DNA from: a virus
Strand: one strand, 5' to 3'
Length of the DNA stretch: 64,000 nt
IMG/VR virus record: IMGVR_UViG_3300032132_000001
Location: 106,573 to 170,572 of that record
This document shows positions 2,457 to 21,654 of the stretch, piece by piece. How positions within the stretch are numbered: the first letter of the stretch is position 1; every line of letters begins with the position of its first letter. Under the pieces are notes generated by a model. It saw only the letters and a program-made list of their open reading frames with translations. It did not search any database and was not told the origin of the DNA. The translations under genes were made by a program, and so were the position numbers.

Positions 2457-3098
2457 ATGCTCAATGTAATCTGTGTCAAGTGGGGCACCAAGTACAACCA
2501 CGATTACGTCAATAAGCTGTACAATATGACCCAGCGAAGGCTCAATTACGAGCATCGCTTCATCTGCCTCACCGACAACCCTGCCGGCATAGACCCTATA
2601 ATCGAGTCTTTGCCATTCCCGGAAGACGATACGGGATGGTGGAACAAACTAAACTTGTTTCGACCTTATCTCCACGACATCGAAGGTACTATCCTGTATA
2701 TGGATCTAGATGTCGTGCTTGTGGATAGTATCGACCCGTTGATCAACTACAAGGGCCGAAACTTCTGCATAATCGACGACTGGCTTCCACAGTTTCATCA
2801 TAATTCAAGTGTGATGCGCTTTGAGTTCGGCTCTCAACCACACATATGGACCAACTACGAAGAAAAGAAAGGGCTAATCCGCCAGAACTATAGAGGAGAT
2901 CAAGAATGGATCTCCAGACATGTACCAGATGCTACTACCTGGCCAGAAGGGTGGTGCTTCTCTTACAAATGGGGTGCCAAGCTCAAGGCGCTGAACAAAC
3001 CAGGTGTGGTGCCAGCCAACGGTAAGATTGGCGTATTTGCAGGAAGGCCAAAACAGGACGAAGTATCTGATCTCTGGGTGAAGCGTAACTGGAAGTAG
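2457..3098 (+). CDS. glycosyltransferase-like protein (DxD motif, nucleotide-sugar transferase fold)
   Basis: 213 aa. 'YMDLDVVLVD' DxD motif. N-terminal VICVKWGTKY is typical of sugar transferases. Confidence 0.45.
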   Translation: MLNVICVKWGTKYNHDYVNKLYNMTQRRLNYEHRFICLTDNPAGIDPIIESLPFPEDDTGWWNKLNLFRPYLHDIEGTILYMDLDVVLVDSIDPLINYKGRNFCIIDDWLPQFHHNSSVMRFEFGSQPHIWTNYEEKKGLIRQNYRGDQEWISRHVPDATTWPEGWCFSYKWGAKLKALNKPGVVPANGKIGVFAGRPKQDEVSDLWVKRNWK

Positions 3099-3133
3099 AT
3101 ACGCTGTTCACGAAACCTCAACCCAGGAAGAAA

Positions 3134-3547
3134 ATGAGATACGTATTGATTCTGTTGACTGTGTTTCTGACCGCTTGTTCTAATCCTCCTACGGAGAAGA
3201 AGGCACCTACCATCTCCTTCGAAACCCAGAGGACACTGAAGCTGTCAGTCACGCATTTCCACGACCACAACCGTACCCAATTCTACAGTACCATCGGCGA
3301 GATGGAAGCGTGGGACGGGAAGCAAAGCTCCGGGAAACTGGCGTTCAAGGCCGAAGAAGGAGCTGAAAACCAGGAAACGCCCTTTAGACCACTTGCTGGT
3401 CTACTGCTAGTCACTCAAGACGCAGTGAAGGCGTACACCACTCGCAATGAAGAGATCAACGAACTGCAAAGGTTCATCGATCTGAAGCAGTGGAACAATG
3501 CCTTGAAGGCTCAAGAAGCCCTGATCAGAACTCAAACTACTAAGTAA
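3134..3547 (+). CDS. putative lipoprotein
   Basis: Signal peptide ending in lipobox L-T-A-C (MRYVLILLTVFLTAC). Confidence 0.55.
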   Translation: MRYVLILLTVFLTACSNPPTEKKAPTISFETQRTLKLSVTHFHDHNRTQFYSTIGEMEAWDGKQSSGKLAFKAEEGAENQETPFRPLAGLLLVTQDAVKAYTTRNEEINELQRFIDLKQWNNALKAQEALIRTQTTK

Positions 3548-3553
3548 ACATTG

Positions 3554-3576
3554 GGAGGCCCTCCTAGAGGGCCTCC
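3554..3576. terminator. bidirectional stem-loop terminator (GGAGGCCCT/AGGGCCTCC, 5-nt loop) followed by a T-rich tract
   Basis: Perfect 9-bp GC-rich inverted repeat between convergent genes 3134..3547(+) and 3564..4382(-). Confidence 0.5.
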
Positions 3577-4382
3577 ATTATTTCCCCTGCTCTATCGAAC
3601 CCGTAAAGCCAGATATTTTCCATAGCTTTCGGGTTGAAATCTAGCACGTCGCCCAGGTGCCTCTCTGGGCTGATAATGATCAATTCCCTATTCCTACACA
3701 TTTGGGGTAGGTCGTTGCGCGCGATCTCGGATACCATAATATCTACGGTGCGCATCAAAATATCGATCAGGCCCGAAGGGTTTCTCTCTAGATGCTTGGT
3801 CTCAAGCGGGCTGTTGATTACTACTATGATCCGGTCAATGTGACGATCCCAAAGTACCGGTGCAACCGGGATAGTATCAATCAGACCTCCATCCCCGTAG
3901 TCGTCACCGTGGATGTTGACCAGAGGCATGATAGCTGGCATAGAGGCAGACGCTAGGACGTACTTCTCCCAGTTGTCCATATTCTCCATGGACGACTCGA
4001 TCCTTGCTACCATACCAGTTCTCATATTGGTAGCGGTTACGACGGCTTTCCGCCCGTTCACGTAAGCCTGTTGCAGCGCTTCTTTATCAGAGTAGCGTTC
4101 GATTAGGTTGGCGAGAGGGGAAGTATCAACGAGAGATCCGTGGACGAAAGCAGAGATTAGATCTCTATCTCTCAAAATGTCAGTATCTTCTATTCCACCT
4201 CGATAGACGTCATTTATTACTTCGATGTTGTCCAGGAGAATCGGACCTGCCATCAATGCTCCGGTCGAGGTCCCCGACACTATATCCCATCTGAAATCGT
4301 ACTGGGACATCAACCGGTAGATCGCACCCACCGCGAATGCCCCATTCCTTCCGCCTCCGCTGATTACTAATGCGTCGCTCAT
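3564..4382 (-). CDS. patatin-like phospholipase
   Basis: N-terminal GGGxxG oxyanion motif (ISGGGRNGAF), GTSTG serine lipase motif, and DGG catalytic Asp motif. Confidence 0.7.
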   Translation of the reverse strand: MSDALVISGGGRNGAFAVGAIYRLMSQYDFRWDIVSGTSTGALMAGPILLDNIEVINDVYRGGIEDTDILRDRDLISAFVHGSLVDTSPLANLIERYSDKEALQQAYVNGRKAVVTATNMRTGMVARIESSMENMDNWEKYVLASASMPAIMPLVNIHGDDYGDGGLIDTIPVAPVLWDRHIDRIIVVINSPLETKHLERNPSGLIDILMRTVDIMVSEIARNDLPQMCRNRELIIISPERHLGDVLDFNPKAMENIWLYGFDRAGEIMEAL

Positions 4383-5342: not shown

Positions 5343-5795
5343 ATGCGATTCTCGCTTCTGCTTTTGCTTCTGTTGGTTGCCTGTAGTTTATCTGGATGTA
5401 TCTCGCTCGGACAAGACGAGCGATTGACGGAAATCGCACAAGAAGAATGGTTGCGCAGTGGGCCCCCTGATATGTTCAGGTACACCTATATTAGAGGAAA
5501 ACTGTGCATTGGGTCTCCTGCCGCAAGAGGACATTTTGATGGTACTCTATCAGTATATGTCCCATGGCCTTGGAACTATTGCGAATTTATGACTCGTATC
5601 ATAATGAGATATGAGCTGAGTAAAGTAGCCTGGCAGTTACATGGGGCTCAATTAGTAGAAGAGAATGGCCCATATGCTGCGCCGGTTACGATCCCTATTT
5701 GTATGTATATGTGGCTAGATGCTGTCTTCCATCTTCCAACCAGCGAACTCCACTCTTGGTACCGTTCGTTGTTTCCTGGGGAAATTCAAAAATAG
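5343..5795 (+). CDS. putative lipoprotein
   Basis: Signal peptide with lipobox LSGC (MRFSLLLLLLLVACSLSGC). Confidence 0.55.
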   Translation: MRFSLLLLLLLVACSLSGCISLGQDERLTEIAQEEWLRSGPPDMFRYTYIRGKLCIGSPAARGHFDGTLSVYVPWPWNYCEFMTRIIMRYELSKVAWQLHGAQLVEENGPYAAPVTIPICMYMWLDAVFHLPTSELHSWYRSLFPGEIQK

Positions 5796-18723: not shown

Positions 18724-18954
18724 ATGGGTAAACTCACGCTTGTAAGCGATATCATGGCCGGGACAGAGGGTGCTCCTTTTTGTGCCCCAGCCAAGCCTCG
18801 TCTATGCCCACTATGCTTTGCCCTTGCTGTTCTACCGCTCGATGAAAAGAATCTAGCCAAGCAACCAGATGCTACTACTCACGTATGTCACCCCTCGATT
18901 GATGGGTGCAACTTCGGCTTTGAACATATGCCCGAGGAGAAGAACGATGGGTAA
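18724..18954 (+). CDS. hypothetical small Cys-rich protein
   Basis: AGGAG SD. 76 aa. Confidence 0.35.
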   Translation: MGKLTLVSDIMAGTEGAPFCAPAKPRLCPLCFALAVLPLDEKNLAKQPDATTHVCHPSIDGCNFGFEHMPEEKNDG

Positions 18955-19675
18955 AGACACAGGGATAAGCTGGACAACGCACACGTGGAATCCATGGCGA
19001 GGTTGCCTAAAGGTTAGCCCTGGCTGCAAGATCTGTTACATGTATCGCGACCAGACGCGCTATGGAAAGAATCCAGCAGAGGTGGTCCGTGCAAAGCCAA
19101 CCACTTTCAACGCACCTCAGCGCTGGAAGGAACCAGCACACGTATTCACCTGCTCGTGGTCAGATTGGTTTATCGAAGAAGCAGACGAGTACCGGCCGGA
19201 AGCATGGGAGATCATCAAGAACACCCCGCACCTCATCTACCAAATCCTGACCAAACGCCCTGAAAATATTGCAGGTCGATTGCCGGCCGATTGGGGTGCT
19301 GGATATCCGAATGTCTGGTTGGGCGTAAGCGTTGAAAGTCAGGAATATGCAGATGAACGTATACCGACCTTGCTTGAGCAGCCGGCTGCTCTCCACTTCC
19401 TGAGCATTGAGCCTCTATTATCTGAGGTGACGCTCAATAATACCGACGAATGGCTAAATAAGGTCGGATGGGTAATCGTCGGCGGTGAGAGTGGTGGTGG
19501 GTACCGTCCCATGGAACCAGCCTGGGCGTTGTCGGTTCGCGACCAGTGCGGTGCATATGGTGTCCCATTCTTCTTCAAGCAGCACGGTGGTACGAAGAAA
19601 ATCGATGGAGAATGGGGCGGTAATAAGCTGTCTGGTCGAACATGGCAAGATATGCCAAAGGAAACACATGTTTGA
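18947..19675 (+). CDS. DUF5131 (phage Gp37/Gp68 family) protein
   Basis: N-terminus GISWTTHTWNPWRGC...SPGCKICY is typical of the family. The start is the internal Met of ORF 18869..19675. Confidence 0.6.
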   Translation: MGKDTGISWTTHTWNPWRGCLKVSPGCKICYMYRDQTRYGKNPAEVVRAKPTTFNAPQRWKEPAHVFTCSWSDWFIEEADEYRPEAWEIIKNTPHLIYQILTKRPENIAGRLPADWGAGYPNVWLGVSVESQEYADERIPTLLEQPAALHFLSIEPLLSEVTLNNTDEWLNKVGWVIVGGESGGGYRPMEPAWALSVRDQCGAYGVPFFFKQHGGTKKIDGEWGGNKLSGRTWQDMPKETHV

Positions 19676-20281: not shown

Positions 20282-20680
20282 ATGAAATACCTCATGCTCC
20301 TACTGTTGTTCGTCGGCTGCGCCCCCACCTCCCAGCAGCTCGTCGATAGGACTCTCCAAAAACACCCAAATCTGGCTCATCGTGTAACGGTAATCTTGAG
20401 CCAAGATCTACGGATCCACATCGGTGGTGTCCGTGGGATGTACGACCCAGCCACTCGGACAATAACGGTGGCAGATACCCCAGATCGTCTAGAATCTTGG
20501 CTTATCCACGAACTAGGCCATGCTCATTGGTATCTTGTGCTGACCAAAGAACAGCGAGAAGTGTGGATGCAAGATTGGGTGGATCGGACAGATGCCGGTG
20601 GGCCGTGGCCTTCCGATTATGCTGCTACAAACCCGAGCGAGTTCTATGCAGAATCTTTCCGGTTAGAACACGAAGGCTAG
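20282..20680 (+). CDS. lipoprotein with HExxH zinc-metallopeptidase motif
   Basis: Lipobox FVGC. Motif LIHELGHAHW. Confidence 0.55.
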   Translation: MKYLMLLLLFVGCAPTSQQLVDRTLQKHPNLAHRVTVILSQDLRIHIGGVRGMYDPATRTITVADTPDRLESWLIHELGHAHWYLVLTKEQREVWMQDWVDRTDAGGPWPSDYAATNPSEFYAESFRLEHEG

Positions 20681-20817
20681 CCCCAGGGACCTTGGCCTCC
20701 ACCACGCCCACGATTCTCTCTTGCGAGCTGAGCAGAAAGTTTCGAACCACCGACGACTTGCTTTAGCTCTTCGTCGGTGAGTTCCCGCGATTCGTCTACA
20801 ACAGACTTTTCGTTCAT
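20677..20817 (-). CDS. double-glycine leader peptide (bacteriocin/RiPP-precursor-like), Gly-rich core
   Basis: MNEKSVVDESRELTDEELKQVVGG|SKLSAQLARENRGRGGGQGPWG. The internal Met of ORF 20677..20931, with an AAAGG SD 8 nt upstream. Confidence 0.45.
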   Translation of the reverse strand: MNEKSVVDESRELTDEELKQVVGGSKLSAQLARENRGRGGGQGPWG

Positions 20818-20832
20818 GGTTGTACCTTTGCT

Positions 20833-21099
20833 TTGTATTTGAGGTGCATGAGCGCTGAAATATGGTACAGGATTTGGTGCCCCAACCCTGAATGTGGAAC
20901 TACGAACTGGGTTTATGGTGGCGACCCACAAGATTGTACCTTCTGTGATTCAGAAGCTGTGAAGTGCCACAAGTGTGGGCAATGTTGGTGGGTCGATAGT
21001 GAATGGAAGGATATGGTTGGAGAAGATGCTTCAGTAGAAGATCACGCGGAAGAAGGTGACCCCGCACCTTCCGGTTGCCAGAAGATAGAAAAGAAATGA
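20833..21099 (+). CDS. Cys-rich zinc-ribbon protein
   Basis: CPNPEC...CTFC...CHKCGQC. Confidence 0.4.
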   Translation: MYLRCMSAEIWYRIWCPNPECGTTNWVYGGDPQDCTFCDSEAVKCHKCGQCWWVDSEWKDMVGEDASVEDHAEEGDPAPSGCQKIEKK

Positions 21100-21449
21100 A
21101 ACTCATCATTGCTGGCTCTCGCACTATCACCGATGTGGAATATGTAGTTGAATGTATCGAAGATTTCATCTCCAACTTGTGAGGGGAAGAGATCACCGAA
21201 GTCGTCAGCGGTCTAGCTGGCGGCGTAGACTCCATTGGCAAAGCCTGGGCCGATGAGATGGGCATTCACGTTGAACCTTTCCCTTATCCGGACGGTTATG
21301 GGCGTGCGGGTGGTCCGATCCGCAATGCTAAAATGGCCGAATACGGAGACGCACTACTACTCATTTGGGATGGGAAATCTCGCGGGAGCCAAAGTATGTT
21401 ACGAGAGGCAACAAAACGAAAGCTCCGCGTGCAAACTTACATGGTGTAA
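21096..21449 (+). pseudogene. SLOG/DUF2493 (YpsA-like) nucleotide-binding protein interrupted by an in-frame TGA at 21180
   Basis: MKLIIAGSRTITD...SNL*GEEITEVVSGLAGGVDSIGKAWADEMG...GPIRNAKMAEYGDALLLIWDGKSRGS. A continuous DUF2493-like sequence in one frame, except for the TGA. Confidence 0.5.
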
Positions 21450-21450
21450 C

Positions 21451-21654
21451 ATGAGAACTCTAGCCCTTTTCGCTCTGATCCTTTGTGGTTGTGGCACGTC
21501 TCGCCTAGACGTGATGGAAGAGCGTGTAGATGGGCTCGAAAAGCGGTTACACCACACTGAGACCGTATTGGTCTTAGAAGTGACGGGACAGATCGACCGA
21601 GAACGGGTCCGAGAATACATCCTTAAGCGCGCTCAAGAACAAGAGCAGCGCTAG
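21451..21654 (+). CDS. small lipoprotein
   Basis: MRTLALFALILCGC lipobox. The internal start of ORF 21235..21654. Confidence 0.45.
   Translation: MRTLALFALILCGCGTSRLDVMEERVDGLEKRLHHTETVLVLEVTGQIDRERVREYILKRAQEQEQR

Follow-up and report, generated by a model that had tools for sequence, protein, structure and literature searches.

A double-glycine-type peptide gene beside a lethal-factor-like lipoprotein peptidase gene in a large, tRNA-rich phage-like genome

Double-glycine leaders are the standard bacterial export route for pheromones, bacteriocins, and many modified peptides, and are usually encoded beside their exporter. The reference group consists of the peptides exported by peptidase-containing ABC transporters (PCATs), including the ComC/BlpC pheromones, class II bacteriocins, and colicin V-type microcins (TIGR01847, PF03047/PF10439). 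Leu-12, Glu-8, Leu-7, a hydrophobic residue at -4, and Gly-Gly are their experimentally defined recognition residues, docking in the groove of the C39 peptidase (PMC6363468). A 64,000-nt stretch of viral DNA (IMG/VR record IMGVR_UViG_3300032132_000001, positions 106,573 to 170,572; hereafter "the window") carries a gene for a 46-aa pre-peptide with the same features, i.e., an acidic leader (22-32 aa in the family) up to Gly-Gly, with Leu-12, Glu-8, Leu-7, and Val/Ile-4, followed by a short basic core, and TIGR01847 was matched by four of the six family members. In contrast to the reference group, the genes belong to large phages rather than cellular loci, neither a cognate exporter nor a two-component system or an immunity gene of a known family was seen nearby, and the core is hydrophilic and Gly-rich with a conserved GPWG end, while the specific family models remained below cut-off. 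Secreted-peptide genes on phages are also known from phage-borne bacteriocin clusters such as sublancin on SPbeta (Dragos et al., 10.1101/2020.10.01.322628). In those cases temperate phages or prophages carry the whole cluster, whereas the locus described here holds a lone precursor and a peptidase in a tRNA-rich region of a probably ~400-kb phage, with no prophage copy in the genomes searched. The leader is of a known kind, while the core family, its restriction to large phages without a nearby exporter gene, and the recurrent lethal-factor-like lipoprotein partner are new. Literature searches yielded no account of the peptide family, nor of any pairing between a double-glycine peptide and a lethal-factor-like lipoprotein. 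The features of the locus, in window coordinates, are:

20677..20817, minus strand: 46-aa double-glycine pre-peptide gene, ATG at 20815..20817 and TAG stop at 20677..20679 (translation, homologs, codon pattern, and conservation limits)
20746..20817, minus strand: leader, residues 1-24, MNEKSVVDESRELTDEELKQVVGG (TIGR01847 above cut-off, recognition residues kept)
20680..20745, minus strand: predicted core, residues 25-46, SKLSAQLARENRGRGGGQGPWG, 22 aa (alignment and physicochemical values; inferred cleavage site)
20825..20829, minus strand: Shine-Dalgarno-like AAAGG, 7 nt before the ATG, within the conserved block GCAAAGGTACAA (20820..20831) and kept in the closest relative, L008
20835..20842, minus strand: short upstream block TCAAATAC (TCAGATAC in L008), common to the window and L008 in the alignment
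20282..20680, plus strand: 132-aa lipoprotein, lethal-factor-like (M34-like) minimal zinc metallopeptidase (PDB sequence search, AlphaFold2 model, and Foldseek)
20318..20320, 20507..20521, 20618..20620, and 20639..20641, plus strand: Cys13, HELGH, Tyr113, and Glu120 of this lipoprotein

The open reading frame (ORF) was translated as MNEKSVVDESRELTDEELKQVVGGSKLSAQLARENRGRGGGQGPWG (46 aa) followed by the TAG stop, reproducing exactly the 46-codon minus-strand frame given in an earlier note made from the sequence alone, and the Shine-Dalgarno site of its own that the note had reported was likewise present. The peptide and lipoprotein genes lie tail to tail, as that note had also described, and overlap by 4 bp, with both stops within the palindrome CTAG (20677..20680). 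The differences between the peptide genes of the window and L008 were distributed over the three codon positions as 5/4/20, and an excess at the third position recurred in all pairs of family members compared. Most pairwise comparisons held 14-20 synonymous codon changes, and 30 of 43 aligned residues were identical between the window and L001, 16 of those 30 via different codons. Nucleotide conservation between the window and L008 ran from ~25 nt upstream of the ATG to exactly the stop codon, the convergent peptidase gene being far less conserved in the same alignment, and in the six core members a TAG or TAA stop follows straight after GPW[GE]. A purine-rich Shine-Dalgarno-like motif occurred at matching spacing in every family member except L001, in which the peptide gene is translationally coupled to the upstream gene via a ATGACTGA overlap. 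Based on these homologs, the third-position and synonymous pattern, the conservation that ends at the stop, and the ribosome-binding motifs, the 46-codon frame is almost certainly a real gene. The contrary explanation, a spurious ORF antisense to a plus-strand transcription unit, would fit its position as the sole convincing minus-strand gene within a plus-strand block (~5.3-32.4 kb) and the finding of no consensus promoter or terminator in a scan; it was refuted by the comparative data, including the shared stop position and the co-directionality of the gene with its neighbors in other loci, and retains a negligible probability. The upstream block at 20835..20842 is a possible promoter element of unspecified type, and the octamer was not enriched before other genes.

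The peptide family was recovered via a word-indexed search and an exhaustive HMMER search of 1.84 billion representatives (~5.8 billion protein clusters). It comprises only six to seven clusters among the 5.8 billion, consisting of five homologs and one divergent member:

P0001 (L002): same phage, 100% identical DNA
P0012 (L008): 79% identity, closest relative
P0002 (L001): 71% identity, JGI name "bacteriocin-like protein"
P0004 (L004): family member
P0008 (L005): family member
P0007 (L006/L007): family match in the C-terminal part only
P0010 (L013): divergent member

All contexts of sufficient length for a judgment were phage-like, with collagenous tail-fiber-like proteins, Mom, methylase, helicase, and tRNA arrays, and the GC content of the contigs ranged from 38% to 66%, such that the family spans different phage lineages. 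No match to the peptide was found in GenBank phages by tblastn, blastn of the locus returned tRNA-level matches only, and neither the peptide nor the peptidase nor a profile of the core alone gave a match in scans of IMG/VR. Two scans of 185,579 species genomes revealed no family member, and hence no prophage copy and no clue to the host. The only match of the metagenome scan, L003, was rejected as a family member, because the leader there, although almost the same, is attached to an unrelated protein of 270 aa. On this low-GC contig (245..1126), 16 residues in a row (RELTDEELKQVVGGSK) agree fully with the window leader and are joined to a nucleotidyltransferase-like protein that may represent a large cargo with a double-glycine leader. 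In addition, leader-like ELTD(D/E)(E/Q)L…GG units occur in tandem, two to four per protein, in the metagenomic proteins P0006, P0003, P0005, and P0009. A short segment, Gly-rich or otherwise, comes after every unit, and the proteins may be multi-core precursors or repeat proteins. The divergent P0010 (…VVGG followed by SKLSACLGGRGRSKWCRDL; L013 358..513) is flanked by tRNA-Lys and tRNA-Ile genes in the same orientation, with gaps of 13 and 7 nt, in an array of eight tRNAs within 1.2 kb; its mRNA would have to be excised from the tRNA precursor.

The leader combines a variable N-terminal part with a conserved ELT-x3-L-x2-V-V-G-G part, i.e., the variable N-terminus and conserved C-terminal helix of known leaders. 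The NCBIfam bacteriocin-type signal model TIGR01847 scored 18.4 bits on the window peptide against a curated cut-off of 15.7, and three of the five other members also passed (L001, 17.6; L005, 19.7; L008, 17.5 bits), while L004 fell below it (14.2 bits) and L006 gave no match. Leu-12, Ser/Thr-11, Glu/Asp-8, Leu-7, Val/Ile-4, and Gly-Gly were kept in all seven sequences, in each of which the core follows the Gly-Gly directly (VVGG then SK). Since TIGR01847 passes and these residues match the determinants of PMC6363468, the leader is of the double-glycine type, and the earlier note's assignment was borne out by the profile search. Specific bacteriocin, lantibiotic, and pheromone models matched the leader only and all below their cut-offs. 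By sequence the leader has been shown to be canonical, and it probably functions in export, with predicted cleavage after Gly24.

The family core reads SK[LIT]SA-x2-[AV][RK]R-x-R, followed by a Gly-rich spacer that varies in length by up to ~10 residues between members, an invariant GPW, and G or E as the last residue; the window core holds the SKxSA..AR.xR N-terminal block and a C-terminal GPWG. Family cores are 18-28 aa long with a grand average of hydropathy (GRAVY) of -0.95 to -2.06 and a charge of mostly +1.5 to +2.5. Cys is absent from all six core members (the divergent P0010 alone has two), which makes thioether chemistry on the core impossible as judged from its composition. Three members have Leu or Phe at core position 7 and the other three have Asp; no amphipathic helix is therefore conserved, and no hydrophobic or amphipathic segment is shared across the family cores. 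The "classic class II bacteriocin" architecture proposed in the earlier note was consequently retained for the double-glycine leader and given up for the core, which is very hydrophilic, Gly/Arg-rich, and does not resemble a membrane-active class II bacteriocin.

A classical unmodified class II bacteriocin or microcin, the exported core of which kills competitors of the infected or lysogenized host, with the HExxH lipoprotein as an immunity factor degrading the peptide at the producer envelope, is accordingly an unlikely reading. It is favored by the bacteriocin type of the leader, by the bacteriocin and lantibiotic leader models among its weak best matches, and by the JGI label of P0002. Putative metalloproteases of the CPBP/Abi type also act as class II bacteriocin immunity proteins; the adjacent HExxH lipoprotein could take such a role, although it is not of a known immunity family. 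Phage biosynthetic clusters nearly all encode bacteriocins (10.1101/2020.10.01.322628), but the cited examples belong to temperate phages, and the short cores with strongly negative GRAVY and the exporter gene not found nearby both speak against a bacteriocin. The absence of the family from cellular genomes argues against a prophage-borne bacteriocin, although hosts may be uncultured.

The core composition also bears on a second proposal of the earlier note, a precursor of a peptide made on ribosomes and then modified post-translationally (RiPP). In such a reading the leader would recruit a modifying enzyme that cross-links the core, for example at the conserved Trp, Lys, or Arg, before export. 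The support came from the single locus L001, in which a radical S-adenosylmethionine (SAM)/SPASM enzyme of the peptide-maturase type (3218..4306) begins 430 nt downstream of the peptide gene in a tight same-strand cluster, a proximity shared with radical SAM/SPASM RiPPs (ranthipeptides/PapB, QhpD, and nif11-type). This enzyme scored 189 bits against PapB, followed by QhpD and the nif11-type maturase, with every match falling well short of the equivalog cut-offs. The invariant Trp, Lys, and Arg could be cross-link sites, and Trp-Lys and Trp-Arg cross-links made by other radical SAM enzymes are described in PMC11851443. Conversely, the maturase was seen in one of six loci, was not in L005 or L006, and had no homolog in the 64-kb window by tblastn, and the core lacks the Cys required by the closest enzyme families (ranthipeptide, QhpD, and SCIFF) and likewise targeted by sactipeptide-type enzymes. 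The same locus encodes, ~2 kb upstream of the enzyme (L001 735..1304), a collagen-like, tail-fiber-like protein with a dense C-terminal CxxC repeat (CCSCNTCEKCNTCEQCNT…) that appears to be a better substrate candidate than the peptide and possibly represents a structural protein of the phage that a RiPP-type maturase cross-links. A RiPP precursor is therefore considered doubtful.

The partner protein begins MKYLMLLLLFVGC and carries the lipobox LLLFVGC with Cys13. A PDB sequence search of the partner retrieved anthrax lethal factor (E=0.0045) with the HExxH, Tyr, and EF(F/Y)AE elements aligned, H76, E77, H80, Y113, and E120 falling on the HEFGH, TSY, and AEFFAE segments of lethal factor (H686/E687/H690/Y728/E735). 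The HExxH, the predicted catalytic Tyr, and the Glu predicted as third zinc ligand keep the spacing of lethal factor, and this set was invariant in seven homologs. An AlphaFold2 model (mean predicted local distance difference test score, pLDDT, of 88.5) matched the lethal factor catalytic domain in all of the top 19 Foldseek PDB results, with probability 1.0 or 0.99 and a query template-modeling score of ~0.45-0.5, followed in the model comparison by minigluzincins (selecase) and PPEP-3. The partner thus shares with the M34 lethal factor and Pro-Pro endopeptidases (PF07737 ATLF) and the minigluzincins (selecase and projannalysin) the HExxH, the downstream Tyr, and the Glu in an EF(F/Y)AE helix, as well as a predicted fold closest to the lethal factor catalytic domain. 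It differs in having a mature domain of only ~115 aa, in being lipid-anchored and phage-encoded, and in scoring 15.2 bits for PF07737 against a gathering cut-off of 27.4, such that it is lethal-factor-like but not a scored member of PF07737. Lethal-factor-like domains of a similar kind occur in many phage proteins, and the family of this peptidase comprises seven clusters among 5.8 billion. Judging by the lipoboxes of the window protein, P0084, P0087, and P0089, the peptidase is located outside the cytoplasm, and with its catalytic residues intact it is predicted to be competent and extracytoplasmic. The long-type homologs P0084, P0086, P0087, P0088, and P0089 (L001, L009-L011) share a C-terminus of the form …RAA, …RTAA, or …RAAA preceded by a basic stretch, a conserved tail reminiscent of a degradation or sorting tag.

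The pairing of peptide and HExxH lipoprotein, known to the earlier note from the tail-to-tail genes of the window only, proved to be conserved: at four of the six loci, which stem from different samples, a lipoprotein-peptidase homolog neighbors the peptide gene, arranged as follows:

Window: convergent, 4-bp overlap
L008: convergent, 4-bp overlap; the other flank differs (tRNA-Glu and class V aminotransferase)
L004: co-directional; the peptide gene begins 30 nt past the peptidase gene
L001: co-directional; one lipoprotein gene lies between the peptide and peptidase genes

Peptidases of the convergent and co-directional arrangements are only ~27% identical and their flanks differ too. Given linkage in four of six loci, this divergence, and a family of just seven clusters in 5.8 billion, chance adjacency is excluded and simple synteny is an incomplete explanation. 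The genomic context therefore slightly favors a functional coupling of the peptide to the peptidase. Three lipoprotein genes surround the L001 peptide gene, and the one directly downstream (2789..3208) has a homolog in the window at 5343..5795 on the plus strand (32% identity, tblastn E=4e-11). This homolog lies 15 kb from the peptide gene, and the lipoprotein matches no known family.

Several observations weigh against an exported peptide coupled to this peptidase. The earlier note had seen no C39/ABC exporter in the window, which held on closer analysis: the ABC signature motif LSGGQ was absent from all frames of the window and of the related loci. A Pfam scan of 87 window ORFs gave matches to 41 families, the statements made here referring to the best 25 of them, and ABC_tran was not among these 25, although a weakly matching stand-alone C39 peptidase could escape such a search. 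Export would thus depend on an unseen component. No HExxH relative was present in the available stretches of L005 (18 kb) and L006 (8 kb), and the peptidase homologs of L009-L011 and L014 (133-192-kb phage contigs and an NCBI fragment of a metagenome-assembled genome) had no double-glycine peptide nearby, from which it follows that the coupling is not obligatory. The convergent genes of the window and L008 are, moreover, not co-transcribed. Finally, in P0007, found in two independent samples (L006 7198..7839 and L007 217..858), the reading frame runs without a stop from a weak UDG-like domain of ~160 aa into the peptide. A domain upstream of and in frame with the peptide is odd for an N-terminal export leader, and an internal AGGA-N6-ATG could permit separate translation of the peptide.

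These observations are in part those expected of an intracellular small phage protein whose acidic helix and basic tail bind a host or phage target, the likeness to a leader being convergent or vestigial and export not occurring. In favor of such a protein are the lack of a visible exporter in the window and related loci, the fusion to a UDG-like domain of cytoplasmic type, and the location of three copies within or beside tRNA genes rather than in secretion-related contexts; many small proteins of huge phages also act inside the cell. Against this stand the five recognition positions and the Gly-Gly, invariant in seven divergent sequences, the curated leader model passed by most members, and a recurrent partner that is an extracytoplasmic lipoprotein, together with the setting of the L001 peptide gene among lipoprotein genes. 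An intracellular role is thus unlikely.

A composite reading, to which we assign an even chance, is that of a peptide exported by the host, or by a distantly encoded exporter, coupled to the lipoprotein peptidase, and acting as a ligand. In the infected cell, the helix of the 24-residue leader would be recognized by a peptidase-containing ABC exporter with a C39 domain, supplied by the host or by phage genes beyond the 64-kb window. The exporter would cut after the Gly-Gly and release the 22-aa core, which is hydrophilic and cationic. This peptide could then meet the phage zinc peptidase to which it is linked genetically, lipid-anchored on the outer, extracytoplasmic side of a membrane, and the peptidase might either trim it to an active form or destroy it, limiting its range or protecting the producer. 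The product is more likely a ligand, i.e., a cue or effector binding a protein, than a membrane-disrupting bacteriocin, because no hydrophobic or amphipathic segment is conserved, Cys is lacking, and two conserved ends (SKxSA…R.xR and GPWG-COOH) flank a variable spacer.

Such a ligand recalls the arbitrium system (AimP/AimR), and the earlier note had suggested an arbitrium-like peptide. An AimP-type peptide governing the lysis-lysogeny decision would share with the present one a short phage-encoded pre-peptide, probably matured outside the cell, conservation at the very C-terminal end (xGPWG), and a neighboring gene for an extracellular protease; maturation of AimP by an extracellular protease is conceptually similar. 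The suggestion nevertheless did not stand and is very improbable, as the N-terminus is acidic and of the double-glycine type rather than a Sec-type signal peptide, and the C-terminus hardly varies, whereas that of arbitrium peptides is phage-specific. Neither an AimR-like receptor nor any TPR/HTH family was found among the neighbors scanned in the window and L001, the upstream neighbor in L005 is an HTH-rich Mom-family protein that is not AimR-like, and no integrase or lysogeny module was among the best 25 of the 41 window families; the type of phage differs as well. No histidine kinase turned up in the neighbor scans, which included no search aimed at histidine kinases.

The wider window has the character of a large, phage-like genome with ~50% GC. 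It carries 22 tRNA genes, all on the plus strand between 7.2 and 28.9 kb, and its proteins include a Gp23-type capsid protein, Pol III alpha, RecA, NAMPT, and ribosome recycling factor, among others. A protein recorded on a 397,419-bp contig agrees without a difference with the last 80 aa of the lipoprotein, and the window therefore probably derives from a phage of ~400 kb. This phage region is rich in lipoprotein genes, with a further one at 3134..3547 and a small lipoprotein-like ORF at 21448..21654 on the plus strand (MRTLALFALILCGCGTS…, then a charged stretch), inside the ORF 21235..21654 near the peptide and peptidase pair. A DUF5131 (phage Gp37/Gp68) protein is encoded at 18869..19675 on the plus strand, 0.6 kb upstream of the peptidase gene, and weakly matches the radical SAM "mobile pair protein A" model; no evidence was found tying it to the peptide. 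An SLOG/DUF2493-like gene at 21096..21449 on the plus strand (MKLIIAGSRT…GGPIRNAKM…LLLIWDGKSRGS) reads on through a single in-frame TGA (21180..21182), which could reflect a pseudogene, a read-through site, or local recoding. Stop-codon recoding in the peptide, prompted by this TGA, was considered and rejected, as the family members stop at TAG or TAA and TGA is the commonest stop among the long window ORFs (29 of 68).

The significance of the locus lies in its departure from the usual arrangement of double-glycine peptides, i.e., a rare conserved family found only on phage-like contigs, with no nearby exporter and repeatedly paired with a minimal lipoprotein zinc peptidase. Speculatively, and with low confidence, the two genes may form a module of large tRNA-rich phages that sends an extracellular peptide cue through a host exporter, matured or quenched by the phage peptidase, for signaling or host manipulation unrelated to arbitrium; such a module would hijack a quorum-peptide export route, possibly in Gram-negative or uncultured hosts. 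With a 22-aa peptide and a peptidase of ~115 aa, both partners are small enough for direct testing. If the peptide is exported, the pairing would provide a first candidate peptide substrate for the lethal-factor-like peptidase domains common in phage proteins. In that case these phages would also parasitize a host secretion route and release a small hydrophilic peptide during infection, which would represent a new type of phage extracellular signal or effector.

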